Of a stretch of DNA of 64,000 nt, positions 20,753-42,698 are shown in pieces; position 1 is the stretch's first letter, and every line of letters starts with the position of its first letter. Origin of the DNA: Nitrospirota bacterium (GTDB lineage Bacteria; Nitrospirota; Thermodesulfovibrionia; Thermodesulfovibrionales; Dissulfurispiraceae). A program made the translations under genes and the position numbers. Under the pieces are notes generated by a model. That model was not told the origin of the DNA, made no database searches, and saw only the letters and a list, made by a program, of their open reading frames with translations. The stretch spans positions 288,001 to 352,000 of the forward strand of contig CAWBMP010000005.1 of NCBI GenBank assembly GCA_963790025.1, read 5' to 3'.

Positions 20753-20803
20753 GCAATCAATATTAACACATTGCGAAAGCCACTATAAGGGTCTGGCTCT
20801 TGC

Positions 20804-20975: not shown

Positions 20976-21066
20976 GCTCTTGCCTCCCAAACACGAGTTT
21001 TTAGTATATAATCTTTAGTATATAGCCAATATGCTATTACCTGTATGTTAAGAGGGAGGATATCCT

Positions 21067-22698
21067 ATGCTATCGACACGAAAACTTACGGAGTTGCCGT
21101 CATGGAAGGCGCTCGAAGACCACTACCGGAAGATTCAGGGCGTCCACCTTCGGGAACTATTTGCCGGCGATTTGCAGCGTGGCGAGCGATTCGCTGTCGA
21201 AGCATCCGGCATTTACCTTGATTACTCCAAGAACCGCATCACAGGTGAAACCCTTCGGCTTCTTTTCCAACTCGCTGAGGAGTGCGGTCTGCGCGAACGG
21301 ATCGATGCGATGTTCCGCGGAGAGGAAATTAATATTACCGAGAAACGTGCTGTGCTTCATATAGCTCTGCGTGCACCCCGGAATCAGTCGATCTTTGTTG
21401 ACGGTGAAAACGTGGTGACCAAGGTTTACAAGGTACTTGACAGGATGGAGGATTTCGTCAATCGCGTCAGGAGCGGAGAGTGGAAGGGACATACCGGCAA
21501 GCGTCTCCGCAATGTCGTAAACATTGGTATTGGTGGCTCTGACCTGGGTCCGGCCATGGCTTACGAAGCGCTGAAGCATTACAGCTCGCGCGATATGATT
21601 TTTCGTTTCGTTTCGAACGTGGACGGAACGGATTTTACCGAAGCGACGCTCGACCTCGATCCGGCAGAGACCCTTTTTATCGTGTCATCGAAGACTTTTA
21701 CAACCCTGGAGACGATGACGAACGCACACACTGCCCGTCGGTGGACGCTGCAGGCGCTGGGTGACGAGCGTGCCGTAGCGCGGCACTTCGTTGCCGTCTC
21801 AACCAATGCCGAAGAGGTGGCAAAGTTCGGCATTGACACCGCGAATATGTTCGGGTTCTGGGACTGGGTCGGTGGTCGCTACTCGATGGATTCAGCCATC
21901 GGGCTTTCGACCATGATCGCTGTCGGAGCCGAAAACTACCGGGCGATGCTCGCCGGTTTCCATGCTATTGACGAGCATTTCCGCACCGCGCCGTTCGAAG
22001 GGAACCTGCCGGTGCTAATGGGACTGCTCGCTGTTTGGTATAATAACTTCTTCGGTGCGCAGACTGTGGCCGTGCTGCCTTACGACCAGTACCTCAAACG
22101 TTTCCCGGCCTACCTCCAGCAGTTGACGATGGAGAGCAACGGCAAGCACTCAACGATAGACGGCTCACACGTCGATTACGAAACAGGCCCTATCTTATGG
22201 GGAGAGCCGGGCACCAATGGCCAGCATTCATTCTATCAGCTTGTCCACCAGGGGACGAAGCTTGTTCCTTGCGACTTCATCGGCTTTTGCAGAACGCTGA
22301 ATCCTGTGGGCAAGCATCACGATGTGCTTATTGCTAATCTTTTGGCGCAAACCGAGGCTTTGGCATTCGGCAAGACGGAAGATGAGGTCAGGGCGGAGGG
22401 AACACCGGAGTGGCTGGCTCCCCACCGCGTCTTTGAGGGCAACCGTCCTTCGAATACTATTCTCTGCGAGAAGCTGACGCCGGAGATGCTCGGTAAACTT
22501 GTTGCGCTTTATGAGCATAGTGTATTCACTCAGGGAACGATTTGGCTTATTGATTCCTTTGACCAGTGGGGGGTTGAGTTGGGCAAGGTCCTGGCGCAAA
22601 GAATCATTCCGGAACTTGAAAGCGCCGATGAGCCGCAGGCCGGGCACGATAGTTCGACCAACGCTCTTATGCGTCGCTACCGCAGGCTTAAAAAATGA
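21067..22698 (+). CDS. pgi: Glucose-6-phosphate isomerase
   Basis: [45 protein letters not shown]. Confidence 0.97.
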
Positions 22699-25244
22699 GT
22701 GAATCAAAACGAGTCAGCAGTCCCATACACCGATTTCTTCCCTTTGAGGTCGATGGCTTCGATTCTCTTGTAGAGCTTGCCATGGACCTGCGCTTGTCGT
22801 GGGACCATCAGGCCGGCGAGGTATGGCAGCAACTCGATGCGGTGCTCTGGGACCTGACGCAGAACCCATGGGTCGTTCTTCAGACCGTCTCCAGGGACCG
22901 ACTTCAGCGCGTGTTGGATGATGCCACCTTCCGTAAGAAAGTCGATGACCTTTTGCAGGCAAAAAGTGAAGCGGCAGAATCGCCTTCCTGGTTTTCGCAA
23001 AATCATTCGGGTACCCAATTGAACAGCGTCGCTTATTTCAGTATGGAATTCATGTTGAGCGAGGCACTCCCGATCTATTCGGGTGGACTTGGTAATGTAG
23101 CCGGAGACCAGCTGAAGGCTGCAAGCGATCTGGGAGTTCCGGTAATCGGCGTGGGGCTCCTCTATCAACAGGGCTATTTCAGACAGGTAATAGACAGAAA
23201 TGGAATGCAACAGGCCCTCTTTCCCTATAATGATCCCGGTCAATTGCCTATTACGCCTTTGCGTGAGCCCGACGGAGAGTGGCTGCGTTTGAAAGTTGCG
23301 CTTCCCGGTTACTCCATGTGGCTGCGTGCCTGGCAAGTTCAGATAGGTAGAGTGAAGCTCTACCTTCTGGACAGCAATGATCCGGCGAACTTCCCGGCCC
23401 ACAGAGGAATTACAAGCGAGCTATATGGAGGCGGGCCTGAGCTGCGCCTTCTGCAGGAGCTGACACTAGGTATCGGAGGGTGGCGGCTGCTCAACATGCT
23501 CGGCATCAAACCCGATGTCTGCCATCTGAATGAAGGACATGCTGCTTTTGCGGTATTGGAGCGTGCCCGGTTTTTTATGCTGGAGACAGGGCAACCTTTC
23601 GAAGTTGCACTTGCCGTTACTCGTGCCGGCAACCTTTTCACTACCCATACAGCGGTCGCCGCAGGTTTTGATCGCTTTTCTCCTTCCCTTATGGAGCAAT
23701 ATCTCGGCAGATACGCCGGTGATAGGCTGGGCATCCCGTTCCATGACCTATTGGCCCTGGGCCGCCAGAACCCCAATGACTCCACGGAATACTTCAATGT
23801 GGCCTATCTCGCCCTGCGAGGGAGCGGGGCGGTCAACGGGGTGAGCCGATTACACGGACAAGTCAGTCGACGCATCTTTCAGCCCCTCTTTCAACCTTGG
23901 CCGGAGGTCGAAGTGCCGGTCGGGCATGTTACTAACGGGGTCCATATGCCGACCTGGAATTCAGAGGAGATCGAAGTACTTTGGACAGGGGCCTGTGGAA
24001 AAGAGCCCTGGATGGGTACCGTGGAAACCCTGGAAGAGAACATCCGTAACGTTTCCGATTTTATGCTCTGGAATTGCCGCACATCCGCCCGTGAGTCTCT
24101 GATCAAGTACATGCGGGAACGGTGGTCCCGGCAGGTGGCTGTATCGGGAGGGACGCATGAAGAGATTGAAAATGCCAGAAATATATTCGATTTCAACACA
24201 TTGACACTGGGCTTTGCCCGCCGTTTTGCGACCTACAAGAGGCCTAATCTGCTGCTGCATGATCCTGAACGGTTCCTTCGCATACTCTGCGATTCTCAAC
24301 GTCCCGTGCAGCTTGTCATTGCGGGCAAAGCGCACCCTGACGATCACCAGGGACAGGCCATGATTCAGCAATGGACCCAGTTCATTCGCCGGCCTGAAGC
24401 GCGCAATCATGTAGTGTTTATCAGCGACTACGATATGTTGTTGACCGAACGTATGGTGCAGGGCGTGGATGTCTGGGTCAATACACCGCGGAGGCCCTGG
24501 GAAGCATGCGGAACGAGCGGCATGAAGGTGCTTGTCAATGGAGGAATTAATCTTTCAGAACTTGATGGCTGGTGGGCTGAGGCCTGGTCGCCGGAAGTCG
24601 GGTGGGCCTTGGGTGACGGGAAGGAGCATGGTGATGACCCTGCCTGGGATGCTGTCGAAGCTGAGGCACTCTACACTTTGCTCGAACAAAATGTGGTCCC
24701 CGAATTTTACTCGCGTGATCAAAACGGCATCCCTGCCGCCTGGGTAACGCGAATACGTGAGAGTATGGCCCGGCTGACGCCGCGTTTTTCCGCCAACCGG
24801 GCTGTCATAGAATATACCGAGCACTACTACATTCCTGCTGCCGAGGCATACCGCGAGCGTGCCTCGGGAAAATGCGCTGAGGGTGCTCAGATAGTGGAGT
24901 GGCAGCATAATCTGGCACAGAAATGGACCAATCTGCGCTTTGGGGAAATTAAAATTGAAACTGACCCGGAACGGCACTTGTTTGATATCCAGGTGTATCT
25001 AAACGGCCTCGATCCCGACTCTGTTCGAATAGAGCTTTACGCGGACGGCTTGGACGGCGGCGACCCCGAGAAGCAGGAGATGATGCGCGGTAAGCAACTC
25101 GTCGGCGCAGAGAATGGCTATACTTACAGCGCGATGGTGCCGGCGACCCGACCGGCTGCAGATTATACAGCGCGGGCGCTGCCTTACCATCCCTGCGTTG
25201 CGGTGCCACTGGAAGCTGATCAAATCCTGTGGCAGCGGTGGTGA
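22695..25244 (+). CDS. glgP: Alpha-glucan phosphorylase (long form, GT35)
   Basis: [30 protein letters not shown] (PLP Lys). Confidence 0.95.
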
Positions 25245-25250
25245 GAGTAT

Positions 25251-26543
25251 TTACTTGTCTCTTGATGTCATAAGCAATATGCCTTGTCCCGGTCGCAGGT
25301 CGTACGAGAATGGCGATGGTACATAGTCGAGAGCATATTCCGGAGAGATATCGAGTATTGGAGCGCCCGCCTGAAGATATCCCTGAAGTGACTCTGTATG
25401 GAAATATTGCTTGTTGTAATTGTCTTTATTCAGAATTAAGAGTGATTCTTCATTTGTATAACCTGATGCCTTCCACATAAGCAGAATACCCGGGTTGTCA
25501 TAATGCAGCACAGTTGTGGGGGCCTCCTCCTGGAATACTGGATGACCTGACTTTGCCTTGTTGACGCTTGCTATGAAAGAAGTCAGATCAATGCCTGTTT
25601 CTTCCCAATCTTCAGGTCTGGTTTTTACCACGTGCAACTTCTTGCGGAAGCCGAATTCGAACCCCATCGGCATCATAACGCCGCATGAAAACAGGGCAGA
25701 GAACAGATAGCGTTGTTTGAGCCCTTCGATATTTCCGCCCAATTCTTCGCAGAGCCTGACCGTATCGTGGCTCTCGGGGAAGCTGACGGAAGGGGCTATT
25801 TCCCGTGTAAGGACATATTGTTCCATCAACCATGGGTTGTTGAAGTCCCACCATTTTGAACTGTTGAAAATATAATCGAAACCGGCGGCGGCGGTTTTTC
25901 GTGTCAGGTCGGGCGGGCATCCGAGTGTTTCCGCGAAAAAAAGTGTGTCGGGATATTTTTTCTTTGTTTCGGTGATGAGTCTTTTCCATAGACTTCCGGG
26001 CAGTTGATACGCAGCATCGCACCGGAATCCTTTAAAGCCCAGATCGGAAAGAAAACATATCACGCTGAAAAAGTATTGATAGAGTCCTTCTTTATCTTTT
26101 GTATTTACGTGGTCAAACCTGGCCAGGTCTTTCCAGACCACTTTTTTACCGTCTTCATCTGCAAAGGGATGAGCAATTCGTCCGTCGGCTTCCCAAAGAA
26201 ACCATCCCGGGTGTGATTTTATAAGGTCCGAATCCGTGGAACAATGGTTGATCACCAGGTCCACCATCACCTTCAGCCCGAGTTGTTCTGCAGCCCGGAC
26301 CATATCTTTCACCTGCTCCTGGGGTTTCTTTTCACTTTCAGAGTCAATGAACAGCGGATTGAAATCAAGATAATCCGCTATAGAGTAAAGACTCCCCGAA
26401 GTCCCCACACGCTGGATGGGATTGACAAAAATCCAGTTGAAGCCCATTTCGGATGCCCTCAAAAAATGACTGCCCCAGCCGGTAAACTTTCCTGCCAGCA
26501 GGGGGAAGAGGTTATAGATGATCATTATTTCGGGTTTTTTCAC
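25251..26543 (-). CDS. GH13 alpha-amylase-family enzyme
   Basis: DLVINH, GFRCDAA, FAE, SHD conserved regions. Confidence 0.88.
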   Translation of the reverse strand: MKKPEIMIIYNLFPLLAGKFTGWGSHFLRASEMGFNWIFVNPIQRVGTSGSLYSIADYLDFNPLFIDSESEKKPQEQVKDMVRAAEQLGLKVMVDLVINHCSTDSDLIKSHPGWFLWEADGRIAHPFADEDGKKVVWKDLARFDHVNTKDKEGLYQYFFSVICFLSDLGFKGFRCDAAYQLPGSLWKRLITETKKKYPDTLFFAETLGCPPDLTRKTAAAGFDYIFNSSKWWDFNNPWLMEQYVLTREIAPSVSFPESHDTVRLCEELGGNIEGLKQRYLFSALFSCGVMMPMGFEFGFRKKLHVVKTRPEDWEETGIDLTSFIASVNKAKSGHPVFQEEAPTTVLHYDNPGILLMWKASGYTNEESLLILNKDNYNKQYFHTESLQGYLQAGAPILDISPEYALDYVPSPFSYDLRPGQGILLMTSRDK

Positions 26544-27607
26544 TGTTTGTTCTCCTTTTTACATGCTTCCAGTACGAGTTGGTGGTTATCACTAAGAACA
26601 GAAAGCCATAAATTCATCCGTTCGGCATTTCTCCTGTTCCTCCAGTGATGAAAGAGGTAAGAGGCGTTTCCGAGCTGGAGCATGCCTTCGGTCGGATGAA
26701 TTTCCAATGAGAAGGAAATGTGGTCCGGACCGGGGAGTTTCATGGATTCTGCGATAACCCTTGAAAGTCCACGCGGTCCGAACATGAGGTCGAGATGCCT
26801 TGCACTCCCGTATTCAAATGGTAACATAATTTTATTCAGAAAACTGAGGTGGTCACTTACGCCAAAAGGGCTGAAGGTCGAGAGCGGGTGTGCATCATGC
26901 AGATGGTAATGCACAGGTTTGCCCAGGCTCCCGACCTCCCGGACCACGCGCAGAACTTCAGCAGGCGAAGCGGCGACCGCCTCCTGAACATCTTTTATTA
27001 CTTCCCGAAGTCCGGGATCTTGGGGCTTCAAAGCACAAACATCTCTTCCCGGGTATTTGCGTGAGTAGATGCGGCTTGCCTGCCAAAGGCCAATATGTCC
27101 TATATCGATGCAACTGCTGATGCGCTCAAGGTCACTTGCTGCCCTGAAAAGTGTTATGAAGATATCAGTCTCAAGCCCTGCAGCGTATTCGATAAAAAGA
27201 TAGGGACTCCCCTTGATATCCTGCAGACGGGATTCCATCTCCTGCAGGACAGTCAAATAATTGTCAAAGCGCGCGGCGATTTCGTTTTGATCATGAATAA
27301 TCAATCCCAGCACCCGGTTTTTGAAGTTTTTCGCAAAATCGAGGACCAGCCTTCGACCGCTTTCCTCGAAGAGGTTGATCCATCTGGGCAAATGCACGGC
27401 AGACGGTGCTTCAGGAGTCGGCTTGAACCCCAAAAGCCGCTCCAGCTCATACGGCGTTTCGGCGTAGAACTCGGGTCCCAGCCCTGCCTCTTTAAATCGC
27501 AGGGAGGCGAGCTGCAAAAGAGCGTCATCGCCGTCAATTCTTTTTTGAAAAAGCCCCAGAACAGGAGGGCAAGTGCTGGGCCCTCGACTGGACAAGATAG
27601 ATTCCAT
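26540..27607 (-). CDS. Xylose-isomerase/AP-endonuclease-2-like TIM-barrel protein (start uncertain)
   Basis: Metal-ligand pattern VHLP, IEY, IDIGH, HLHD, SDH, LEIH. Confidence 0.6.
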   Translation of the reverse strand: MESILSSRGPSTCPPVLGLFQKRIDGDDALLQLASLRFKEAGLGPEFYAETPYELERLLGFKPTPEAPSAVHLPRWINLFEESGRRLVLDFAKNFKNRVLGLIIHDQNEIAARFDNYLTVLQEMESRLQDIKGSPYLFIEYAAGLETDIFITLFRAASDLERISSCIDIGHIGLWQASRIYSRKYPGRDVCALKPQDPGLREVIKDVQEAVAASPAEVLRVVREVGSLGKPVHYHLHDAHPLSTFSPFGVSDHLSFLNKIMLPFEYGSARHLDLMFGPRGLSRVIAESMKLPGPDHISFSLEIHPTEGMLQLGNASYLFHHWRNRRNAERMNLWLSVLSDNHQLVLEACKKENKQ

Positions 27608-30600
27608 CTCCTGAAATTACCCCCTCGATATCCTGTGGACCGCTTAACGCATTTTCCACAAACTTTCCGACTGTCCCCAAACGTCCGACTGTGAGATTTC
27701 TGAAGGACCTGTCCATCGACATCCTGATGCCTGTATAATCGATGGTTTCAGCTGTTATCCCGCCGGAAGGACCGGGCAGCAAGGCATGACTGAAACTTGC
27801 AAAGGACAGCATCCTCACCTCTCCTGTTTCTTTATAGCAGACCGCACGGTAAGGACTGCCTGGAGTCGCAGCTGAAGCCAATGTTTCGCCCAGACCGACT
27901 GCCAGCTCTATATAAATCTCTCCAGGATCACAACTTACCGGATTGCGGGTATTCATGATAAATGAAAGTTCCGGAACGAGCATCTTCTGGATGAGTACAG
28001 CCATTACCGCTCTTTCGTGCTGAATGCCGGTGTTTCTTCTGTTCATGACCGCACGTACGTTCCATAGCGAGGCCCAGACCTTGAGTATTGCAGGAGCAAC
28101 ATCCGAAGGCTGAACATTGGCAACGGAATCGTAGAGTCCGGCCCCGGACGAAACTCTCATGTCTTCACAGTTGGCACTGGAACGGACAATCAACCTATCC
28201 GGCAGCCGTTCATCCCGCGTAAATTCTTTCAAAACTCCGGAAACGATTTCAGCCGGGACCGGAAGGTGATTTATGATGTCCTGCAGTCTTGTCAAAGCAC
28301 CGGCCAGGTCGCTTTGCCTCAGCCTGTTCAAGTTGCCGACCAGTGCCTTGTACTCTCTTTCAAGAGCAGGTTTCGCAGAGAGGCATGTCTCCATCACTCC
28401 AAAGGGAATTACAATTCCCGCTGCTGTTTTAAGTCCGGCATGCTCAAGCCTCGACATTTCTTCGAGCCTGCGCGCCGAGTCAGCTTTTCCGCCCCCGTTT
28501 TCCGGAGTGACCTCTTTAAGAGGCAGTAATTTGACTGCGGAGTTCAAAATTACGTGAGGCGGTTCAATAGGATACGTATTGATGGGAGCTGCAGTAATGC
28601 CGGAAGAAATTTTCAGGCTGACACTTTCCGTAAAGGCATCCAGAGTAACCAATTGACCGGCGAGACCTGTTAACTCCGAAAAAAGCCCCCTGTCCTCGCA
28701 TGCTGCGAATACGACATGGCTTTGACGGGCACGGACGGCAAGGTGAGCAAGATGGGGGATTCCATGAGCAACTATAATACCGGCTATCCATGCCGGAATT
28801 TCCTCATCGCCTTCTGCTCTTTCCAGAAGTGCCACGAACGGTCCGTTATGGCCATCCGATAAATTCCCAAGGCCGCCGGCAGCTACCAGGCGTCCTGAGG
28901 CTTTTCCAGGCACTATTATGTCCCAGGAGGGAAGATTTGCGAGTGTCCGAATACTTTTTCGAAGAAGATCGACGAGTTTTGACACCTGAAAGACAATGTG
29001 GCCCCTGATGTCGGCCTCTCCGAAAACTTTTATTGCATGCCCGGCCACGTCAAGTGCGCGGCCCAGCCTTTCGGCTTTTTCAGGGAAGAGAGATAGAATC
29101 TTATGACAATAATCTTCCGCTAAACGCGAGTATCTGTCGAGCGTGGCTTTGAGACGGATCAATTCCTCATGTAATTCTTCACGGTCAGCGGGGATAAGCT
29201 TTTCAGACCAGCTCTTTAGTTCTGATTCTATGGCCCGGCACTCTTCAGGGTCCAAGCCGCTGAGTCGCAAATTCCGTATAGCCTGCACTAACGAGGATAA
29301 AGCCAATTTCCTGTCCTTAAGAACATCGAAATGATCGCTTAAACGGCCTGCGAGGCGGCTCAGGATGACAAAAGAAAAATCCTCCAGCCCGATGTCCGCC
29401 ATGAGAAACTTCTGCGCCTTAGTTTCGTCTTGAAGTTTCTGCATTTCGCAGAATTGGCCGCGAAGTCCTGTTAAAAGCTCCAACACGGTCAACATTTTTT
29501 GTGGAGTGTCTATCTCCTTTTTGGCCCTGAGAAATGCACTTATAGAATCTGCCGGACCGAGATCGATCTCCTTCTCTATTGCGCTGAGTCGTTCATCGAG
29601 AGTAGCGGCATTGAAAAATTCTTTGAGTTCGCTATGAAAGCGCTTGAATTCCTCAACAAAGGCAGGTGAATAATCGGCGTCAGGGGCGGTTATTTTTGTC
29701 AGCAGGCCTTTGGAAGTGGCAAGGTCTTCCGGACCGGCTGAACGGTGCAGTTTGTTCTGGAGCGTATCTTTGATCTCCTTTTTCAATTCTCCGGGAATGT
29801 CGTTTCTGTGGGCGATGTCCCTTATGCGTGTGAGGGGTTCGGCCCTGGTGAATGCGCTGTCGAAAGAAGGCAGCCACGGGTAAATTTTTCTTATGATAAA
29901 AAAGTTTTCGGGGGTTATTATGTTAGAGAGCCTCCCGTATATCTGCTGCGCCATCTTTGCGTGATGCCAAGGCCGGTGATGCCCACCTTCCTCGCCGCAA
30001 GGGACTTCACCTGTGCCGATAAAACGAAGATAGATAGCTATATAAAGGAGATGTTCGATGTTCAGATCGAAGGTATCGCAGGTCAAAACATCATAAACCC
30101 AGCCGAGCCTGTTCTGCCAACTCAGGAACCTGCGGTTTGCAGCAACGATTTCATTTACAAAATCATCAGAGGCAGGAGTAAAGGCAGAAGTGAAGGCAGA
30201 AGCAGAAGCGGAAGTAGAGGTAGAGGAAGAGTTGGAGTTGATTATTTCGATAAGTCTGGTACGTGCCTCATTGAGCAGGCCTTCCGGCTGCGGCCATTGT
30301 TCGAGGATAATACTTCCCGAAAAGTTGCGTTTGTTCATCCGCTCCATAAAACCGGTTATGCCCGCAGCGTCTTTTCCCGCAGGGCCTGTGAAAATGGGCA
30401 GGTGACTGTCACAGTCCCCGTAGTTTTCGTGCATGTGTATATGAATGACAGGTACTTCCGGATCGAGCAGATCGACAAACTTGAGATAGTCGTTACGGGT
30501 CGCATAATATAAGTTTGCATGACCGAGATCCAGGCACATTCCCACATTGCCGGTCCTTTCCAAACTGCGAAGACTCCTGAACAGTTCATTGAAATCTTGT

Positions 30601-31040
30601 GGCCCGGTATACAAAGTGTTTTCAATTGAGAGTTGGATCCCGGCCTTTGCAAGGCGTTTCCCCAGTGGAGCGATCGCGTCCGCGAAGGCGGCAACCCCTT
30701 TGTCGTTATAAAAATGAATGTTGATAAGCGTTGCACCGATGTCCTGTGCGAACCCGATAGTTTTGGAGATGAGTTTGCCGGCATCTGATATGACAGGATT
30801 TGACTGCAGTGAAGCATGCACAGAGAGTCTGATATCACCAGCGAGAGCTGTGTCCCTTATGAAAATACGTGTTTCTTTGGATATGTCGCTTTCTTCCCAG
30901 CCCGCCCCAGATTCATTTTTGTCCGGAAACCATTCAAAGGCGTCAAACCTGTTAGCCATGGCATATTCGAAAGGCAGCATCAGGGAAGGCGCATGTCGGG
31001 ATGTTTGATTACCGATACGCACCCGCGCTGTTTCAATCAT
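27534..31040 (-). CDS. Phosphoglucan water dikinase (PWD/GWD3)-like protein with N-terminal TIM barrel
   Basis: GGHHRP, LPSF, PLTRIRDIAHRNDIP, QNKLHRSAGPEDL, phospho-His motif PHLAHLAVRARQ, RSSANCED...AGLYDS, QDIEG; ATG overlaps the upstream stop. Confidence 0.88.
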   Translation of the reverse strand: MIETARVRIGNQTSRHAPSLMLPFEYAMANRFDAFEWFPDKNESGAGWEESDISKETRIFIRDTALAGDIRLSVHASLQSNPVISDAGKLISKTIGFAQDIGATLINIHFYNDKGVAAFADAIAPLGKRLAKAGIQLSIENTLYTGPQDFNELFRSLRSLERTGNVGMCLDLGHANLYYATRNDYLKFVDLLDPEVPVIHIHMHENYGDCDSHLPIFTGPAGKDAAGITGFMERMNKRNFSGSIILEQWPQPEGLLNEARTRLIEIINSNSSSTSTSASASAFTSAFTPASDDFVNEIVAANRRFLSWQNRLGWVYDVLTCDTFDLNIEHLLYIAIYLRFIGTGEVPCGEEGGHHRPWHHAKMAQQIYGRLSNIITPENFFIIRKIYPWLPSFDSAFTRAEPLTRIRDIAHRNDIPGELKKEIKDTLQNKLHRSAGPEDLATSKGLLTKITAPDADYSPAFVEEFKRFHSELKEFFNAATLDERLSAIEKEIDLGPADSISAFLRAKKEIDTPQKMLTVLELLTGLRGQFCEMQKLQDETKAQKFLMADIGLEDFSFVILSRLAGRLSDHFDVLKDRKLALSSLVQAIRNLRLSGLDPEECRAIESELKSWSEKLIPADREELHEELIRLKATLDRYSRLAEDYCHKILSLFPEKAERLGRALDVAGHAIKVFGEADIRGHIVFQVSKLVDLLRKSIRTLANLPSWDIIVPGKASGRLVAAGGLGNLSDGHNGPFVALLERAEGDEEIPAWIAGIIVAHGIPHLAHLAVRARQSHVVFAACEDRGLFSELTGLAGQLVTLDAFTESVSLKISSGITAAPINTYPIEPPHVILNSAVKLLPLKEVTPENGGGKADSARRLEEMSRLEHAGLKTAAGIVIPFGVMETCLSAKPALEREYKALVGNLNRLRQSDLAGALTRLQDIINHLPVPAEIVSGVLKEFTRDERLPDRLIVRSSANCEDMRVSSGAGLYDSVANVQPSDVAPAILKVWASLWNVRAVMNRRNTGIQHERAVMAVLIQKMLVPELSFIMNTRNPVSCDPGEIYIELAVGLGETLASAATPGSPYRAVCYKETGEVRMLSFASFSHALLPGPSGGITAETIDYTGIRMSMDRSFRNLTVGRLGTVGKFVENALSGPQDIEGVISGDGIYLVQSRAQHLPSCSGAFSKKN
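30169..30240 (-). repeat. Hexamer-periodic low-complexity tract encoding a Ser/Thr/Ala interdomain linker
   Basis: gaggcaggagtaaaggcagaagtgaaggcagaagcagaagcggaagtagagg encodes SNSSSTSTSASASAFTSAFTPAS. Confidence 0.7.
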
Positions 31041-34000
31041 TTTCAAGACCGGTCTGGGGACGTGATTGCACGACATAATATTGCCCGTTCGAGTAGGCCC
31101 CCTCGATATCCTGCGGGCCACCGAGGGCCTTTTCAACAGATGTGCCGATACCGGCAATCTTTATCAGAAACTCGTTCCGGAAATTAGCGTCCCATACAAG
31201 TGCCTCTTCTGCGTAATCCAGCGTGACTTTAACAGGCTGCGGCAGCATGAAGCTGTCGTAAAGACCCGCACCGGCGTAACCGGCAAGGTCCTCGCCATTT
31301 GAATCCGAACGGAAGATCAGGCCGCCCCCCGAGCACTCAAATAGCTTGCCGGTTGCGTGTTGAATGCCCGGTAAACAGGAATAGAGACCGACACTCTTGC
31401 CCGGCAATGACAGCAGGTGCGGCCCCTGATTCCCCTTTTTGCAGACGAAGCTCAAGGCCCTTCCGGGGTAGTTTGCAACCAGTGCCTCCCCGAGTCCCAG
31501 GACAACTTCAGCATAAACTTCGTCGTTAGCGTTAGTGAAAGGGTTCACAGTATGAATCACAAAACTATAATCAGCTTCAACTATCCTCTGGATAAGGACA
31601 GCCATCATTAGGTCCTTATGAGGGACACCGCTTGCCTTACGGCTTAAGTACGCCCTTTCATTCCACTTCGAGCCCCAAACGCGCTTGATGCAGGTCCAGG
31701 CGTCATCCTGTCCTTCCTGCCGGCTTTCCGGTCCACTTTCCGGCAATCCGAGTCCGGCATTTTCCATCACTGTGCGAAGCGAGGAACTGAATTCATCAGG
31801 GGCCTCAAGGGCCAGTATTATTTTTTTTATTTCTTCCAGTAAAGCGGTATACGACATTGCCGTTTCTTCATTTAGCCGCCGTGCCAGCTCATCATGCTGT
31901 CCAGCGAGTTCTTTATTGACGGGATCGCTGAGGACCTTGTCAAAAACCCCAAAAGGCAAGGCTGCCGAAGCAGGGAGGTGTATCCAATCCGGCAGTTTGC
32001 CCTGCATGCGTTTAAGATTATTGGATTTGCCACCTGTATTTTTATCATTGAAAGCATTCATTGCTACGACGTAGACACTGAAAGGCGCAAACCCCGCCAT
32101 CGCAGACCCTAAAGAGACTTTGGCTTTTTGGGGGGTACTCATTTCTTCCCTGCTTTCTTCGAATGCGACCTCGCCGATTTCGTTTGTGCTCAGCTTTATG
32201 CGGCGGCCGCCAAGTGATTTCAGCTTGCCGATCACATCAGAGTCGTAACAAACGGCAAAGAGTATACGCACATTTCTGGCCCTGACAGCCAGATGGGACA
32301 ATACATCTATTGATGCAGGCGTTATAAGGGCGACAACTCCTTCGGGAATTTCCTCGTCGCCCCTCACATCGCCGGCAATGATGACGGTAGGGCGGCTAAA
32401 ATTCTTGCCCTGGATGGATTTTAAATTAAGCACGGTTTCAATCACCCCTGTCGTCTCATGGCCGGGACTGATCACTTGCCAGTTTCCGAGGTCTGCGCTT
32501 TTCCGCAAAACAGGATCAAGTTTGCGCAAAAGTGCCGAGAGGACAAACGCAGGTCTGCCGCGCACCACTGCTTCAGCAAAAAGCTTAATAGTCCATGGAG
32601 CTGCATGAAAGGCATTGCCGAGGGCTTCGGCTTTGGGCTGAAGGAGTTGGTAATACCGGTCAATGAAATTGCCGATGCCCCTCTGAAGGCGGTCGACAAC
32701 GGCTTTGGACTGAAGCGGCCACAGGGTGCCGGGACCGGGCATCTTGCCCAGGCGCTTAAAGTAAAGAAGACAGTTCTTAAACTCCTCGTCCGGATTTGAG
32801 AGACACAGGTTTTCAAGAGACACTTTGGTCAATCCGACGAGTTCATCTACTGTCAGCTTCCGGTCCAGGTTTTTTTCGACAACGGCCCTGAATAGGTCTT
32901 CAAGGGCCAGATCGAGAAAAAGGAGATCGCGCACAGAGCTTTGGTGCTCGCCGAGTCTGCCCGTCACCGCGTAGCGGGCCTCGGTGATCTTTTCGAGGAG
33001 TATGGGCACGTCCTCTCCGCGATCATCCCGATGCCTCCATATATAATCCATCAGGCTGTGCATTTCCGCATCAAACAGATACCGGGCATTATTAATGGAC
33101 GCTCCGAGATCGGTGCCGGAATGTACCTCCCTCAGTATTCCAAGGAAATGCTCGAAATCGTGAATGAGCGCATCTTTCAGGTGAGGAATGAACTCCGGGC
33201 TGGATATTATCGGGCGCTCATAAGTTTCCAGCCGTTTCCGCGGAACACCGCCTTCTTCGAGTCTCTTATAGAACAGATCAAGCTTCCCGTCACTTCTCAG
33301 GAATTCCAGGTAGGCCTCACATATGACGATATCGTCGGGCGTGGCGTTGTTATGGAGTTTCTGGTGCCATTCCTCCATAAAATGTCCCGCCATCTCTTTG
33401 ATGTGGTGGCGATGCATGATATTCAGTATCTCGTCGCGGACCCGCTGGGCGTCCTTCCCGGTGCCGAGCGTTGTCATCATCAGGCGGATGAACTCGCGCT
33501 CCCCCGGCTCAAGGATGTAGCGGCCCGCAAGCTTCAATGTAAGGCGGTCCATGGCATGGCCTAATTCGCGCGGTTTGGTATTATAGTTTCGCTGCCAGTC
33601 CAGTTGCCTGATATAAGAAAAGCGCAGCCAGACATAAAGAAGGGCAATGCCGTCGACGTCATTGCTTGCAATCCCGTCCAGCAGGTCGTAACAGAGATTT
33701 AACCTGTGCATCAATGTCCATGAATTGCGGCCAATTTCATTTTCGATTATTTTATCTGTAATGGCGGCAAGTTCGAGACTTTCTGAAAAAGCCTCCTGTC
33801 CGGAAGACGGAGCAACGGGTATGAAAAAGTTTTGTCCCTTATCTTTTATCCAGCGCCCTGTATCGCTTTGCTTTAGAACAAACCAGATACCCAGGGGCGC
33901 TTCGTCTTCGCTGGAATCAAGGAGCAGCAGGCTGGTACCATCGCTATAGGCGCTGTCGGCAAATGGCGTCTGGGCCGCTGTGTCCTGGAATACGGTTGTA

Positions 34001-34230
34001 CCGGGAGGCCGAAGAGAGGATTGCGGCAAAACCCATTCATGGCGCGACTTATATGCTGCTCCCCAATGCAGGATCAGGGGGCCCCGTATATCGGCAAGCA
34101 GTGCAATAATGTAATGCCTCTTGTCTTTGGTCACAACAACAGCCAGTTGCCCTTCATCAAGCCGGTACGGGCGTTCATAAACGATCTTTTCCTGATCTAC
34201 CGCTTTTTTAAGTTCTTCGATTAAAAGCAT
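31033..34230 (-). CDS. Alpha-glucan water dikinase (GWD1/R1)-like protein
   Basis: CBM45-like LILHWG...EW; RQLDWQRNYNTKPRE; RVRDEIL; EEWHQKLHNNATPDD; DVLSHLAVRARN; FRSDSNGEDLAGYAGAGLYDS; QDIEG...VVQSRPQ. Confidence 0.9.
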   Translation of the reverse strand: MLLIEELKKAVDQEKIVYERPYRLDEGQLAVVVTKDKRHYIIALLADIRGPLILHWGAAYKSRHEWVLPQSSLRPPGTTVFQDTAAQTPFADSAYSDGTSLLLLDSSEDEAPLGIWFVLKQSDTGRWIKDKGQNFFIPVAPSSGQEAFSESLELAAITDKIIENEIGRNSWTLMHRLNLCYDLLDGIASNDVDGIALLYVWLRFSYIRQLDWQRNYNTKPRELGHAMDRLTLKLAGRYILEPGEREFIRLMMTTLGTGKDAQRVRDEILNIMHRHHIKEMAGHFMEEWHQKLHNNATPDDIVICEAYLEFLRSDGKLDLFYKRLEEGGVPRKRLETYERPIISSPEFIPHLKDALIHDFEHFLGILREVHSGTDLGASINNARYLFDAEMHSLMDYIWRHRDDRGEDVPILLEKITEARYAVTGRLGEHQSSVRDLLFLDLALEDLFRAVVEKNLDRKLTVDELVGLTKVSLENLCLSNPDEEFKNCLLYFKRLGKMPGPGTLWPLQSKAVVDRLQRGIGNFIDRYYQLLQPKAEALGNAFHAAPWTIKLFAEAVVRGRPAFVLSALLRKLDPVLRKSADLGNWQVISPGHETTGVIETVLNLKSIQGKNFSRPTVIIAGDVRGDEEIPEGVVALITPASIDVLSHLAVRARNVRILFAVCYDSDVIGKLKSLGGRRIKLSTNEIGEVAFEESREEMSTPQKAKVSLGSAMAGFAPFSVYVVAMNAFNDKNTGGKSNNLKRMQGKLPDWIHLPASAALPFGVFDKVLSDPVNKELAGQHDELARRLNEETAMSYTALLEEIKKIILALEAPDEFSSSLRTVMENAGLGLPESGPESRQEGQDDAWTCIKRVWGSKWNERAYLSRKASGVPHKDLMMAVLIQRIVEADYSFVIHTVNPFTNANDEVYAEVVLGLGEALVANYPGRALSFVCKKGNQGPHLLSLPGKSVGLYSCLPGIQHATGKLFECSGGGLIFRSDSNGEDLAGYAGAGLYDSFMLPQPVKVTLDYAEEALVWDANFRNEFLIKIAGIGTSVEKALGGPQDIEGAYSNGQYYVVQSRPQTGLEND

Positions 34231-34234
34231 GTTC

Positions 34235-35743
34235 TCATGTAATGCCTTTCCTCTCGATCATCCGGAAATGATCAGCGAATATCTTGCGGAAATGAAAGCC
34301 GTATATCGAAAACGTTATGGCCAGAGGGAACAGTTTCGGATGCCTGAAAAGGGACCAGAAGAATAATCTCCAATAATAGAAACGCTCTTTCCCTATTATC
34401 CCGAGTATGAGCACAGACTTAAATCCTGCTTTAACATAGCTGTACCGCATATGGATTACATTTTTCTGGACCGGCCTGTACTCTCGCAGGAACAGTTTGA
34501 CCCGCTTATAGTAATTTTTTGGAGAATAGATTGTATCGATGATTTGTTTATAGCCTGTGATTAGTCCTTCGTAGTTCATCTTTGGAATGAAGTTCATTGA
34601 AAAGTCCGTATTGTCCCCCGACACAGCGTTCAACAACCTGTTTTCTCCGACCAACCGGTGATAGAGCTTTGTCCCACGCGGCGCATTCAGGAGTCCTACC
34701 ATTGCCGTCACAATCCCGCTCTCCTGGATGAACCCTATCATCTTCTCAAATATCGAGGCCGGGTCTTTATCAAAGCCGACGATGAACCCGGCCTGGACCT
34801 CAAGCCCGAAACTTTGTATCTTCCTGACACTCGCTATAAGGTCCCTGTTCCTATTCGGTATTTTTGTGCATTCAAGAAGGCTTTCCTCGTTGGGAGACTC
34901 GATGCCAACAAAAACAGTACTGAACTCGGCCCTCGCCATCATTTTCATGAGGTCCTCGTCGTCGGCCAGATTGATGGACGCTTCGGTCGAGAGCGTAAAA
35001 GGATGCCTCTTCAGGTCCATCCATTGGATAATCGACGGCAGTATCTCCTCTTTCAGTTTCTTCCTGTTCCCGATGAAGTTGTCGTCAACGAAGAATACCC
35101 CGCCCCTCCAGCCGAGAGAGTAAAGTTTCTCCAGTTCGCCGATTATCTGACCGTTGTTTTTTGTCCTGGGGACCCTGCCGTATAGTGAGGTTATATTGCA
35201 GAATTCGCAATCAAAGGGGCACCCCCTCGAATACTGGATATTCATGGAGGCGTAATCCTTCATGTTTATAAGCTCCCACAAGGGAATGGGCGTGGTCGTC
35301 ACATCGGCCCATTTATTCGATGTGTAGAGACTTTTGGGCCGTCCCTCTCTCAAATCGTTCAGGAACGGATGAAGCGTAATCTCCGCCTCGTTGAGCACAA
35401 GATGGTCTATGTCGGGAAACTCTTCGTGATCATTGGTAAAGAGCGGGCCTCCGGCAACCACTTTAACGCCTGCGGCCCTGCATCGTTTGATAACGGTTTT
35501 TGCCGATTCCTTCTGTATGGACATAGCGCTCAGAAAGACATAATCCGCCCACAGAAGATACTTGTCTTTCAGTTTCCGGACATTCATGTCCACGAGCTTT
35601 TTCTCCCATTCGCATGGAAGCATTGCTGCCACTGTCAGCAGCCCGAGTGGCGGATTGACGGCTTTCTTTGATATGAACTCGAGGGCATAGGAAAAACTCC
35701 AGAAGGTATCGGGATATTCCGGATATATAAGAAGGACTTTCAT
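34235..35743 (-). CDS. B12-binding radical SAM protein (DUF4070-type)
   Basis: PDTFWSF, PPLGL, SRGCPFDCEFC, FFVDDNF. Confidence 0.9.
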   Translation of the reverse strand: MKVLLIYPEYPDTFWSFSYALEFISKKAVNPPLGLLTVAAMLPCEWEKKLVDMNVRKLKDKYLLWADYVFLSAMSIQKESAKTVIKRCRAAGVKVVAGGPLFTNDHEEFPDIDHLVLNEAEITLHPFLNDLREGRPKSLYTSNKWADVTTTPIPLWELINMKDYASMNIQYSRGCPFDCEFCNITSLYGRVPRTKNNGQIIGELEKLYSLGWRGGVFFVDDNFIGNRKKLKEEILPSIIQWMDLKRHPFTLSTEASINLADDEDLMKMMARAEFSTVFVGIESPNEESLLECTKIPNRNRDLIASVRKIQSFGLEVQAGFIVGFDKDPASIFEKMIGFIQESGIVTAMVGLLNAPRGTKLYHRLVGENRLLNAVSGDNTDFSMNFIPKMNYEGLITGYKQIIDTIYSPKNYYKRVKLFLREYRPVQKNVIHMRYSYVKAGFKSVLILGIIGKERFYYWRLFFWSLFRHPKLFPLAITFSIYGFHFRKIFADHFRMIERKGIT

Positions 35744-35902
35744 TGAAAACTCCTTATGGATAAATGGACAGGTTAATACGCTCGATGGAATCGACTGAAG
35801 CGCCAACTATGACGATGAATACGGAACGTCTCACTAATGAGAATTATAACACAATTCTTCTACATTACTTGTCATTAATAGCTGAATCAAATGTTCGGGC
35901 CG

Positions 35903-37768
35903 TTAGTCCATAGATGGTTTTTGGGTTGCCGGAGGTATAAATACTCTTACTGTTGTACCCCTGCCTTCGGCCCCGGTAATCTCCACTGCCCCTCCCCAGG
36001 GATATACACGCTCTCGCATCCCTATTATGCCGAAGGATTGGGGCTTAGAAAGTTCCTCATCTGTTATGCCTTTGCCATTATCCATGACTTCCAGTATAAC
36101 CTGGTCATTGTCCCGTATTAGTCTTGCCGTTACCTTTGTGGCATTCGCATGCTTAAGGACGTTTGTCAGTCCTTCCTGAAAGATTCTGTAAAGTGCGGTA
36201 CTCCGTTCTTTGTCCAACTCGATATCCTCAGGCTCTGAGCAAAAAGTGCATTCTATCCCAATGCGTCTTTGAAATTCGTTCGCCTGCCATTCCAGTGCGG
36301 CAACAAGACCGAAATCATCCAATAACGAAGGTCTCAGCTCAGCGCAGATGCGCTTGACGGACAAGATTGCCTCATTTAGTGTATTCATCATTCCTTCGAC
36401 CTTGTCGAATACGGCCGTCTGGTCCCGGTAATTGCTTCGAAAACAACATAATTCCATCTTAATGGCCGTCAATATCTGGCCGAGTTCGTCATGAATCTCA
36501 CGCGCAATAGTTGTTCTTTCCTCTTCCCTGAAGGTAAGCAAATGAGCGGCAAGCTCACGAACTTGCTGATGCAATATTTTTAGCTCAGCTGTTTTTGCGA
36601 CTACGGTTTGTTCTATTTTGACATTTCTTCTAAAGACGCTTATCATCAGCATCGATACTGCACCTGTCAGCAGCAAACCGCTGATTAAAACCAGCACGTG
36701 GCCGTGCGTAGCCGCAACAGCGCCTGGATGAGTCACATATATTTTCCATGAGCGGCCGCCCACATCAATCATCTTTTCCGTTAGCGGCCTGTTTTGGGCC
36801 TTTTTTTCATGCGCTGTAAAGTCCATTGTTTCATCTGAATAGACGCCGAGCAGCCGTCCCGAACTGGATGCATCCATGTCTTTTATTCCTATTGACAGAC
36901 CTGCGCGCGTGAACCCTGACAATGCCCTTTCGACTATATCGCTTATCCTGAATACACCAAGAACAAAGCCGCGCAGTCCCGATGAATCAGGTACAACGCT
37001 TTCATCAAGAATTCCCGGGTTGTAAACAGGATAAAATAACAGAAAGCCGCATTGACTCGATCGTTCCTGGACCAGATTTATTCCTTCCGTGGCTGCTGAT
37101 CCTCCGATATTTATCGAGTGCCTGATCGCCTGTAATCTGGGAGCACTGGACGCCAGGTCTAAACCCAGAGCGGCTTCGTTGCCTTTATATGGTTCAAGAT
37201 AATAAACGGGTAAGTATTCTTTTCTCTTTCCTGCACGCACCATTTGCCCTTGTTCATTCAGTTCCTTTATCTCAAAGACGGGATAACCGTCTCTTTGTGC
37301 AGCCTGCTCGTATTTCTTCCTTTCGGAATAAGGAATTAACGGGACCCATTCCAACGCCTGTATGGCGGAGTTTCGAAGTAGTGTGTCCGCTATTTCATGA
37401 AATACATGCCTATCGACATCACGATTTGCGGCATAAAGACCGGCCAGGGCTTTCAGTGTTGTGACATTGGAATCAAATGCTTCTTCAAGCGCAAAAATTT
37501 GGTCTTCAGCAGCATCCTTCAGCTTTTGTTGCACCAATGCCAGTTCGGATATATATGTCTTATAGGTGCTGAAGACCGTTAAACCAACGGCCGCAATTAA
37601 AAATAACCCAAGGGAAAAAAGTTGTTTGCGTCGAAGTTTATATTTAGAGTCTGTAAACACTTGGACCTGCCCCCGAAAACTGTGCAGACCTTCACAACCA
37701 TAAGATTGCTTCGCAGTCGCCCCTCGCACAGATGGTACGCATGAAATAATTTCTCCGGTAATATACAC
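35903..37768 (-). CDS. CHASE-domain sensor histidine kinase (HisKA_3); native N-terminus uncertain
   Basis: YLEPYKGNEAALGLD (CHASE); ERTTIAREIHDELGQ; DNGKG. Confidence 0.85.
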   Translation of the reverse strand: MYITGEIISCVPSVRGATAKQSYGCEGLHSFRGQVQVFTDSKYKLRRKQLFSLGLFLIAAVGLTVFSTYKTYISELALVQQKLKDAAEDQIFALEEAFDSNVTTLKALAGLYAANRDVDRHVFHEIADTLLRNSAIQALEWVPLIPYSERKKYEQAAQRDGYPVFEIKELNEQGQMVRAGKRKEYLPVYYLEPYKGNEAALGLDLASSAPRLQAIRHSINIGGSAATEGINLVQERSSQCGFLLFYPVYNPGILDESVVPDSSGLRGFVLGVFRISDIVERALSGFTRAGLSIGIKDMDASSSGRLLGVYSDETMDFTAHEKKAQNRPLTEKMIDVGGRSWKIYVTHPGAVAATHGHVLVLISGLLLTGAVSMLMISVFRRNVKIEQTVVAKTAELKILHQQVRELAAHLLTFREEERTTIAREIHDELGQILTAIKMELCCFRSNYRDQTAVFDKVEGMMNTLNEAILSVKRICAELRPSLLDDFGLVAALEWQANEFQRRIGIECTFCSEPEDIELDKERSTALYRIFQEGLTNVLKHANATKVTARLIRDNDQVILEVMDNGKGITDEELSKPQSFGIIGMRERVYPWGGAVEITGAEGRGTTVRVFIPPATQKPSMD

Positions 37769-37805: not shown

Positions 37806-39250
37806 TGTCAAGCCAATTTAGAAATGTCCTATTTTTACCAAAATAGAAATGTCCGGTTTTTACGCTGCTGCTTTCCTCAACCTTTTCCTCAACTCTTGCC
37901 TTTTGAATATAAGGTCTTGTGATGTTCTCCAGAGATGATCTTTTGCCGGCACGCTATTTTGTGAATATCGTCTAATGGTGCTTTTCTCTTTATTCATCTT
38001 TTCCGGCCGGGCATCAATTTCTTTATACTTAATGCGCCTATCCTGGTACATTACTAACATCGTGCCGTCAATGCGTTCTTCGACTATTACTCTCGTCTTC
38101 TTTGGAAACGCCTCTTTAAGCTGATAGATTTTTTTATTGTGCCGTATAGTATTGTCATTTCCTACTGTATGCTCTGACCGTATACATAATATCCTGTTGA
38201 GGTTAAGTCCCTTTGGAATAGCCCTATGAATATCTTCCTTATGATGCGGATGAACCATAAATTTCTTATTAAAGTCAGCCCAATAATGTTCTTCCATGAA
38301 CATGTTTGCTTCTTCTATTGTGTTGGTTCCACGCAGTCGCAGTTCCTTTACCAGTCGGTCCTGTAACGTTTCATACAGCCTCTCCACGCGCCCTTTCGCC
38401 TGAGGAGAATAAGCATGAATGCGTTTTACTCCAAGTTCTGCCAATGCTCTGCCAAACTCGCTCAAGGGTTCAGTGCCGTTAATCTCGTCCTCTATGGAGG
38501 GCTCAGATGAAGATTTATAGGTCTTGTGCCTATCAAAATATACGCTCATAGGAATGCCATATTTCCTTATGTACCGCTTAAAACTGTCCATCGCAGGGAT
38601 TGTGCCCTCGTATTCATAAAACCTGCCATATACTCTGCCCGTTGCGTCATCTATATAGGCCATTAGAACACATTGTGGGCCTCTGTCTTCAAACCATTTG
38701 TGATGTGAGCCATCCATCTGCAACATTTCCCCACAATTCATTTTCCGTGGACGCCATTGTCTATGTATCTTTCTTTTTCGTCTTTTCTGCCATTCTCCTG
38801 CCTCGATAAGCCATAAGCGTAAGGTCTCATCACTTATCTTTATTTCGTCTATCTCAAAGAGCTTTTCTGCTGCCAGAGTAGGCCCAAATCCTTTATACCG
38901 CTCCTTATATAACTTGATAACCCTTTCTTTGAGCTTCCTTGGCCTTTGTCTGTTCGATTGTCTGCCGCGAGATCGGTGCCTTATTCCTGTATCCCCTTCC
39001 TCGGTTATACGTTTAACTATTCTCCTTATCTGTCTTTCACTCATTGAAATAATTTCGGCTGCCAGCCTCTGAGTTATCTCTCCTTCGATTACTTTGTGAA
39101 TTACATGCAATATCCTCAATTCCTTCTGCCGTACCATGATAATGTCCCCTTCTGCCATCCCGCCTCCCTCTCAAAAAGAGGCAGTATAGCATTACCTCAA
39201 TAGGACATTTCTAAATTGGTACTATAGGACATTATCATTTTGGCGCGACA
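37806..39250 (-). mobile_element. ISNCY/IS1202-group insertion sequence
   Basis: TGT...ACA ends; imperfect TIRs with repeated aatgtcc motifs; 16-bp direct repeat ccgcccgatttttttt at 37790-37805 and 39251-39266. Confidence 0.9.
37860..39158 (-). CDS. DDE transposase (ISNCY/IS1202-like)
   Basis: HTH; QMDGS.H.WFE; IDDATG; SPQAKGRVER. Confidence 0.92.
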   Translation of the reverse strand: MAEGDIIMVRQKELRILHVIHKVIEGEITQRLAAEIISMSERQIRRIVKRITEEGDTGIRHRSRGRQSNRQRPRKLKERVIKLYKERYKGFGPTLAAEKLFEIDEIKISDETLRLWLIEAGEWQKRRKRKIHRQWRPRKMNCGEMLQMDGSHHKWFEDRGPQCVLMAYIDDATGRVYGRFYEYEGTIPAMDSFKRYIRKYGIPMSVYFDRHKTYKSSSEPSIEDEINGTEPLSEFGRALAELGVKRIHAYSPQAKGRVERLYETLQDRLVKELRLRGTNTIEEANMFMEEHYWADFNKKFMVHPHHKEDIHRAIPKGLNLNRILCIRSEHTVGNDNTIRHNKKIYQLKEAFPKKTRVIVEERIDGTMLVMYQDRRIKYKEIDARPEKMNKEKSTIRRYSQNSVPAKDHLWRTSQDLIFKRQELRKRLRKAAA

Positions 39251-39465
39251 CCGCCCGATTTTTTTTTGTCAAGCCCGATTTTTTTGACACGTGACGAAAG
39301 TCCCTATAATGATTATTTATTACTGCGATACAAAATCCATATTAGACATAAGGACAGGTTTGTAATATGATGAGAGTGAGATCATGATTGACCGGCATTG
39401 CGGTATTTCTCCGGCTTGTGCCCGGCATTAGTAAAGCATAGATGAATTTTTCAGAAGGAGGCCAC

Positions 39466-42051: not shown

Positions 42052-42062
42052 GGGAGGGAAAA

Positions 42063-42650: not shown

Positions 42651-42698
42651 ATTTTAAGGGCGGCCTCTCGGCCGCCCTATTCTTGAGGAGGAAAACTG

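Follow-up and report, generated by a model that had tools for sequence, protein, structure and literature searches.

Glucan phosphate is removed at C6 and C3 by SEX4, LSF2 and laforin, glucan phosphatases of the dual-specificity phosphatase fold. It is added by two dikinases: GWD1 of plants and algae (EC 2.7.9.4; StGWD1, PDB 9HA9 and 9QVI), built in the order carbohydrate-binding module (CBM) 45, central domain, phosphohistidine domain and ATP-grasp domain, and PWD, or GWD3 (EC 2.7.9.5), which phosphorylates C3 of glucan that already carries phosphate and stands close to the CBM20-bearing dikinases of red algae and alveolates. Here, we describe a bacterial operon that encodes orthologues of both. 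It lies in a stretch of 64,000 nucleotides from a Nitrospirota genome (GenBank assembly GCA_963790025.1, contig CAWBMP010000005.1, positions 288,001 to 352,000), hereafter the window. On its minus strand, five open reading frames (ORFs) follow one another closely or overlap: a radical-SAM gene, GWD, a PWD that begins with a barrel domain (TIM-A), a second barrel (TIM-B) and an enzyme of glycoside hydrolase family 13 (GH13).

In its accessible part, the 2018 paper of Cenci et al. states that GWD had been found only in starch accumulators, and the legend of its Fig. 9 allows that some bacteria could have gained GWD by lateral transfer (PMC6260743). A 2026 structural review, in the portion available, deals with the two dikinases solely in its treatment of chloroplasts (PMC12892837), and neither 'bacteri' nor 'PWD' occurs in the available portion of the 2026 GWD1 structure paper (PMC13553574). 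A literature search that covered few subscription journals found nothing on a bacterial GWD–PWD operon or on its barrels. An earlier note, made from the letters of this DNA alone, had recognized the two dikinases and called them enzymes generally regarded as eukaryotic. This was overstated, given the bacterial GWD in the 2018 legend and the automatic JGI labels that many homologues carry.

Two Full-Length Dikinases

By sequence, both ORFs are full-length orthologues of GWD1 and PWD with intact catalytic residues, and glucan dikinase activity can be predicted for them with good confidence. In BLAST comparisons, the window GWD scores 666 to 747 bits against 13 eukaryotic GWDs (38–41% identity over ~1,060 aa) and 66 to 196 bits against 21 eukaryotic PWD-type proteins; PWD scores 239 to 645 bits (31–42% identity) against the latter and 105 to 179 bits against the former, eukaryotic names being those of the source databases and some unnamed rows having been classed as eukaryotic by their CBM20 or PF23229 content. 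The central domain of GWD matches the potato GWD1 crystal structure 9HA9 over aa 156–579 with an E value of 1.7e-82, compared with 3e-16 for phosphoenolpyruvate (PEP) synthase. Its CBM45-type domain (PF23166, E 2.8e-26, aa 25–139) is present in a single copy here and in two copies in many relatives. Pfam recognizes Ig_N_CWD1 (CBM45-like), GWD1_pHisD and PPDK_N on GWD, and AP_endonuc_2, GWD1_pHisD and PPDK_N on the 1168-aa ORF that follows.

The motifs quoted in the earlier note for the two ORFs are all present, and the His codons it had singled out are at 32293–32295 (His646) and 28743–28745 (His766). When the potato GWD1 reference residues E900, R904, E971 and H992, given in the part of the structure paper at hand (PMC13553574), are mapped through a plant GWD in the alignment, their equivalents are E553, R557, E626 and H646 in GWD and E675, R679, E746 and H766 in PWD. 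Of the GWDs, 18 of 21 bacterial and all 13 eukaryotic sequences have a late ATP-grasp segment, RSDSNxED, that none of 51 PWDs has; an early segment, RSSxNxED, is found in 23 of 30 bacterial and all 21 eukaryotic PWDs.

In addition to sequence identity, the window GWD shares its domain order, catalytic residues and late RSDSNxED with GWD1. It differs in being bacterial and operonic, in its one CBM45, in lacking a transit peptide and the PF23229 region, in its barrel partner and in an Ala discussed below. The window PWD shares the central, phosphohistidine and ATP-grasp core and the early segment with PWD/GWD3 and with the CBM20-bearing enzymes of alveolates and red algae, but CBM20 is missing. 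Pfam finds no recognized CBM in it, and an AP_endonuc_2 barrel (aa ~5–270) takes up the N terminus instead; in relatives, TIM-B is sometimes attached to the C terminus as well. Judged by its domains, the second dikinase is a PWD-clade variant, not a canonical PWD. This clade also includes alveolate enzymes named GWD by their authors, according to the available part of a preprint (bioRxiv 10.64898/2026.09.25.754361).

PEP synthase and rifampin phosphotransferase have homologous ATP-grasp and His-swivel domains, but GWD and PWD differ from them in domain order and acceptor domain. Either identity can be rejected: the best profile score is 119.5 bits against a family cut-off of 999, and in an ATP-grasp-domain tree rooted on three PEP-synthase-like proteins of the same genome (a tree with no characterized rifampin phosphotransferase), GWDs group at 100/99, PWDs at 93/93 and the two together at 100/100. 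Structure match, BLAST scores, residues and trees thus agree with the identities first proposed for the two ORFs. The three outgroup proteins (C5:105397-108282, C5:270193-272664 and C4:799245-801800) have ATP-grasp and His domains, fall under the family cut-offs and match only the first 470 profile positions.

A Conserved Operon

The operon is a real and conserved feature, a plant-type starch phosphorylation set in bacteria, and it is patchy but old. A GWD-anchored scan of species genomes found 129 relatives, 80 of which were kept as loci; these are labelled Nitrospirota, Desulfobacterota/Deltaproteobacteria, Scalindua, Verrucomicrobiota, Acidobacteriota, Nitrospinota and Chloroflexota. Individual searches returned from at least 294 to 1,778 homologues. 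Within the window's phylum, PF22973 scores above its cut-off in 26 of 401 genomes, and within the window's order in 36 of 151. In the phyla of the Scalindua locus and of a Desulfobacterales locus, the counts are 9 of 251 and 6 of 251, respectively, and among 14 control genomes the count is 0.

Operon makeup was counted in the 49 GWD-anchored loci with at least 6.5 kb downstream. The full set of TIM-A, PWD, TIM-B and GH13 accompanies GWD in 24 of them. The remainder have TIM-A and GH13 (8), TIM-A only (5), none of the four (5), TIM-A, PWD and TIM-B (3), GH13 only (2), TIM-A, TIM-B and GH13 (1) or TIM-A and PWD (1), so that GH13 is present in 35. Gene order is kept across Nitrospirota, Desulfobacterota, Planctomycetota, Acidobacteriota and one Chloroflexota-labelled record; the Planctomycetota copies, a deep branch in the trees, have the order GWD, TIM-A–PWD, TIM-B. 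Recurring wider neighbours include glgA, a GH57 branching enzyme, DUF4912 and a GT4 glycosyltransferase, and the alpha-glucan setting that the earlier note had seen at this one locus is conserved in that glgA, the branching enzyme and DUF4912 stand beside the relatives. A stand-alone PWD used as the query of a metagenome scan gave no match.

Two Barrels That Travel with the Kinases

The least explained part of the operon is the pair of metal barrels, which the first reading of the sequence overlooked. TIM-A and TIM-B are homologous but divergent (hhalign, 95%), and their predicted models are confident, with predicted local distance difference test (pLDDT) values of 91 to 92 (90.9 for TIM-A). 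Models and fold searches identify both as (beta/alpha)8 barrels of the xylose-isomerase-like, or AP endonuclease 2, superfamily (PF01261), which includes endonuclease IV, CbiR, MJ1311 (3WQO) and TTHB071 (3AYT). Against MJ1311, the two give Z 23.9 (rmsd 2.9, 239 aligned) and 19.4 (rmsd 2.9, 237 aligned). For TIM-B, searches of Pfam, NCBIfam and PDB sequences gave no match, and the Atlas offers only unnamed clusters above 0.95.

Within such barrels, two N-terminal His ligands together with a late Asp/His pair mark multi-metal hydrolases, not single-metal epimerases. All 35 TIM-A sequences share nine invariant residues (H75, H109, E140, D171, H174, H202, D211, H213 and E247), and all 24 TIM-B sequences share H72, H105, E140, D168, H171, H235, D252, H253 and E302. 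Endonuclease IV binds its metals through nine residues, H, H, E, D, H, H, D, H and E, as listed in the part of a recent paper available to us (PMC13113976). In a sequence mapping, TIM-A matches all nine by order and spacing, and TIM-B matches eight plus a shifted Asp. The barrels thus probably keep the endonuclease-IV-type ligand set, making them putative phosphoesterases, and CbiR, as described in the accessible part of its report, is an example of how the family yields non-DNA phosphodiesterases (PMC7733943). What sets them apart from the described members is an identity below 21%, the lack of a DNA-repair context, a tie to glucan dikinases or CotH kinases and, for TIM-B, ~80 extra residues and an altered Asp–His spacing.

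Inheritance links the barrels to the kinases. Among the 151 genomes of the order, 36 have a dikinase, and TIM-A is present in 33 of these and in none of the other 115; TIM-A is kept even where it is unlinked from GWD (genomes G096 and G291). It occurs in 10 of 251 genomes in the phylum of the Scalindua locus, namely the 9 dikinase genomes and G685, and in 5 of 251 in that of the Desulfobacterales locus, all of them dikinase genomes. TIM-B, for its part, occurs in 9 of the 151; two dikinase matches are seen in 13, and every TIM-B genome is one of these. The four two-dikinase genomes without it are G227 and G411, which have two GWDs, and G237 and G273, which have PWD. All 9 Planctomycetota carriers have TIM-B, and in the 49 counted loci PWD and TIM-B occur together in 27 and each without the other in 1.

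Fusions take the forms TIM-A–PWD (29 of 80 loci), PWD–TIM-B, TIM-A–PWD–TIM-B and TIM-B–GH13 (5 of 80). The commonest could be taken as proof that TIM-A serves PWD, an idea we reject, as TIM-A is solitary wherever PWD is absent. Since it is also separate from PWD in five close relatives, TIM-A seems to track GWD, and the fusion may reflect gene order. In three close relatives, L001 (13911-16049), L003 and L005, TIM-A and PWD are split, and the L001 gap holds a transposase-like gene and a YD-repeat-like fragment (named by eye). One family of the order, f6, is the sole family with full retention: a GWD-type dikinase and TIM-A are present in 15 of 15 sampled genomes, often distant or on different contigs, and TIM-B is present in 0 of 15.

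As an independent test, TIM-B was also used to anchor a metagenome scan, which found 312 relatives and kept 80; the 53 with at least 500 bp upstream were counted, and 27 shorter ones were excluded. A dikinase is present in 33, a CotH kinase lies upstream in 18 and neither is seen in 2; away from dikinases, therefore, CotH kinase precedes TIM-B in 18 of 20. The TIM-B ligands are kept in the CotH group as well, although H235, H237, D238 and H240 were fixed by the scan pattern itself. That TIM-B follows two unrelated kinase families fits a phosphatase.

Several observations on the barrels can be added. CotH kinase followed by TIM-B forms a conserved two-gene module without a glucan dikinase in high-GC metagenome loci (L198:3419-6406, L204, L211, L184, L207, L177 and 13 more). 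A GH13-like gene lies upstream in L190, L191 and L207, an APH-family kinase lies nearby in L195 and L201, and Actinomycetota is the commonest Atlas label for TIM-B clusters. A solitary TIM-A in G685 (L220:9587-10432) has mutL on one side and a porin gene on the other, with a Ser/Thr kinase gene close by. G691 carries a second TIM-B that is divergent (L221:302-1462), with a Cbi/Nik-type cluster for cobalt or nickel uptake downstream of it.

A Proposed Model for Reversible Glucan Phosphorylation

On balance, and with modest confidence, we favour a system of reversible cytoplasmic alpha-glucan phosphorylation in which the cell's own glycogen would be the substrate and the barrels would be the cognate glucan phosphatases. 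Orthology and conserved catalytic residues suggest the chemistry of the dikinases. GWD would bind glucan through CBM45, transfer the beta-phosphate of ATP to His646 and, after a swivel, phosphorylate glucosyl C6, and PWD would do the same at C3 by way of His766. Ligand pattern, co-inheritance and fusions suggest that the barrels are metal-dependent phosphoesterases that take these phosphates off, TIM-A most likely paired with GWD and C6 and TIM-B with PWD and C3. GH13, phosphorylase and GlgX could then trim the loosened chains. On this model, the TIM-A–PWD fusion would be a by-product of gene order.

The barrels would thereby fill the place of SEX4, LSF2 and laforin, to whose fold theirs is unrelated; the proposed role is all that they share with these enzymes, from which they differ in sequence and structure. 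In the 98.8% complete genome, DSPc-family phosphatases (PF00782) gave no match, compared with matches in 9 of 14 control genomes. As for the substrate, the genome encodes GlgC, two GlgA, GlgB, GlgX, a GH57 branching-enzyme homologue (below cut-off) and several phosphorylase homologues. The cell's own glycogen is the simplest candidate, most likely a form with long or aggregation-prone outer chains. One of the phosphorylases, a second, short form (568 aa; 59720-61426, minus strand), lies beside a menaquinone (futalosine-type) gene, and this short form sits near GWD in close relatives.

A number of points weigh against this model. The window GWD has Ala554 at the position of potato E901, where the other 33 aligned GWDs have Glu. 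The top matches of the barrels in fold searches (MJ1311, epimerases, isomerases and AP endonucleases) lie within a few Z units of each other, and Asp252 and His253 of TIM-B are adjacent, in place of the Asp-x-His of endonuclease IV. Co-inheritance has exceptions: dikinase genomes without TIM-A (G166, G227 and G408), PWD genomes without TIM-B (G237 and G273), loci that pair TIM-B with GWD and no PWD (L021 and L147/L148) and a TIM-A in G685, in whose genome no dikinase was found. Care must also be taken with the counts, as the genomes are kin and co-occurrence overstates independence; the CotH loci, too, could belong to a single clade. Lastly, soluble glycogen has no obvious need for dikinases.

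An unlikely alternative keeps the dikinases and makes the barrels sugar or sugar-phosphate isomerases, epimerases or lyases, or makes TIM-A a PWD binding module that replaces CBM20. Ketose epimerases, UlaE, IolE and 3-keto-glucoside lyases do rank level with endonuclease IV in the fold searches, TIM-A does occupy the CBM20 position of eukaryotic PWD and TIM-B is fused to GH13 in some loci. However, the N-terminal His pair and the late Asp/His pair are invariant, TIM-A persists without PWD and TIM-B follows a second, unrelated kinase family, all of which count against this alternative.

Equally doubtful is a semi-crystalline, starch-like granule that needs GWD and PWD for its opening, as in plants, a proposal that is compatible with phosphatase barrels and differs in the substrate alone. 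In the part of the preprint cited above that was available, GWD is correlated with semi-crystalline glucan in eukaryotes, and starch-like storage is described as rare in prokaryotes and as belonging to groups not tied to GWD (bioRxiv 10.64898/2026.09.25.754361). The tandem CBM45 of many bacterial GWDs and the two GlgA and two kinds of branching-enzyme gene in this genome would suit such a granule, the strong form of the starch-like or phosphorylated storage glucan that the earlier note had inferred. Nevertheless, the gene set is the ordinary one of glycogen makers, and the operon is missing from most relatives (115 of 151 genomes of the order).

Alternatively, imported or released maltodextrins, or a non-storage glucan, could be tagged with phosphate for retention or routing. 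The GH13 resembles GlgE and maltodextrin-active enzymes and PWD has no recognized CBM, but GWD retains CBM45 and a glucan-binding central domain, relatives adjoin glycogen synthesis genes and no sugar transporter recurs as a neighbour in the loci whose genes were listed; we regard this idea as improbable. A faulty assembly, contamination from a eukaryote or a recent transfer now in decay would explain the patchy distribution but can safely be set aside, as the ORFs are intronless and overlap on a 639-kb contig among bacterial genes, the relatives and homologues are as numerous as given above and the order is kept in several phyla, independent loci that already refute it.

Origin of GWD and PWD

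Trees were built from 85 rows (LG+G4), 57 of 142 collected sequences having been dropped, and from 43 rows (LG+C20 with posterior mean site frequencies, a quick run taken as the best tree of an unconverged search); no GWD1-type sequence from red algae, cryptists or ciliates was recognized in the set. In both trees, GWD and PWD are split at a support of 100 in the Shimodaira–Hasegawa-like approximate likelihood ratio test (SH-aLRT), with bacteria and eukaryotes in each half, and the bases of both halves are unresolved. With the best tree from the unfinished search and 5,000 replicates (below the number that the program recommends), approximately unbiased (AU) tests on these 43 rows reject a single clade of bacterial GWD plus PWD (p 7e-24), and with it a duplication confined to bacteria. 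They retain reciprocal monophyly (p 0.14), eukaryotes within bacteria (p 0.31) and bacteria within eukaryotes (p 0.10).

On these trees, the GWD–PWD duplication is older than both the bacterial and the eukaryotic lineages. The suggestion of the earlier note that the locus bears on the origin of the two enzymes is sound, but the direction of transfer between bacteria and eukaryotes is left undecided by the AU test. One speculative scenario, which we consider unlikely, is that a complete bacterial cycle with a new class of endonuclease-IV-fold phosphatases came first, that the duplication took place in the bacterial operon and that eukaryotes took the dikinases and later swapped the barrels for phosphatases of the dual-specificity fold. 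It is allowed by the AU value of 0.31 for eukaryotes nested in bacteria, in both halves, and by the full operon that the deep Planctomycetota branches retain.

Layout and Surroundings of the Locus

The features of the locus are collected in Table 1.

Table 1 Genes and domains of the dikinase locus, in window coordinates.
Feature	Position	Strand	Description
GWD1 orthologue	31033..34230	-	1065 aa; CBM45-like aa 25-139, helical central domain 156-579, phosphohistidine domain (His646), ATP-grasp
TIM-A, AP-endonuclease-2-superfamily barrel fused to PWD N terminus	30219..31040	-	Putative trimetal phosphoesterase; distribution tracks GWD
PWD orthologue core, aa ~300-1157	27534..30140	-	Central, phosphohistidine (His766) and ATP-grasp domains; no CBM20
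PWD whole ORF	27534-31040	-	1168 aa from ATG at 31040
TIM-B	26540..27607	-	355 aa; divergent TIM-A homologue; putative phosphoesterase; distribution tracks PWD
GH13 alpha-amylase-family enzyme	25251..26543	-	430 aa; catalytic Asp/Glu/Asp motifs read from sequence
B12-binding radical-SAM DUF4070 protein	34235..35743	-	4 nt upstream of GWD; lineage-specific neighbour
pgi and alpha-glucan phosphorylase (GlgP)	21067..25244	+	Converge on operon, 6-nt gap

Both dikinase ORFs are open and intronless, with an 8-nt overlap between the GWD stop and the ATG that follows. Profile searches confirm GH13, Pgi and GlgP, and the closest solved relatives of GH13 are 3DHU and GlgE. A GH13 partner, as the earlier note had seen, is thus present, but it does not directly follow PWD, the 355-aa barrel gene lying between them. 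The convergence of pgi and glgP on the operon was also correctly noticed but is not a conserved feature: of 80 related loci, just one has pgi and six have a phosphorylase, so the pair was rejected as a core part, and its products are plausible downstream users, not conserved neighbours. The radical-SAM gene, which forms the 5' end of the range quoted in that note, was likewise rejected, with a strong match in only 4 of 80 loci, and is probably outside the system. Scans for promoters and terminators gave counts at chance level (16 vs 16.3 and 22 vs 19.8, respectively).

The genome comprises 3.45 Mb in 5 contigs, and the nearest relatives of the locus, at 71–73% identity, are Nitrospirota genomes. 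A chimeric assembly is unlikely on two grounds: 24 of 49 related loci have the complete set of GWD, TIM-A, PWD, TIM-B and GH13, and the contigs of one public run, possibly the source sample itself, span 29 of 30 bins of 20500–36500 (at least 99% in 38 of 72 in this comparison).

Transposase-like genes flank the wider region, a helix-turn-helix integrase-like gene at 37860-39158 (minus strand) and an IS200-like Y1 gene at 17439-18305 (plus strand). At 39442-44957 (plus strand) lie genes for a Tat-signal molybdopterin oxidoreductase (weak Pfam hits only), a 4Fe-4S subunit, a TorD/NarJ-like chaperone and a sodium:sulfate symporter. A cluster at 51063-57049 (minus strand), with FemAB/GNAT-like, alpha/beta hydrolase, ketoacyl synthase, class III aminotransferase and HAD phosphatase genes, possibly serves a lipid or small-molecule pathway.

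Implications

Taken together, the gene content and conserved residues of this operon suggest that some bacteria reversibly phosphorylate their own storage sugar, and the operon supplies candidate writers and erasers of glucan phosphate. If the barrels are glucan phosphatases, they would be a second, unrelated solution to the task of SEX4 and laforin. The compact bacterial dikinases may also find use in the enzymatic phosphorylation of starch. Bacterial GWD and PWD are as diverse as the eukaryotic enzymes and have barely been sampled in published trees, and they therefore bear on the origin of both dikinases and, thereby, on how starch arose.

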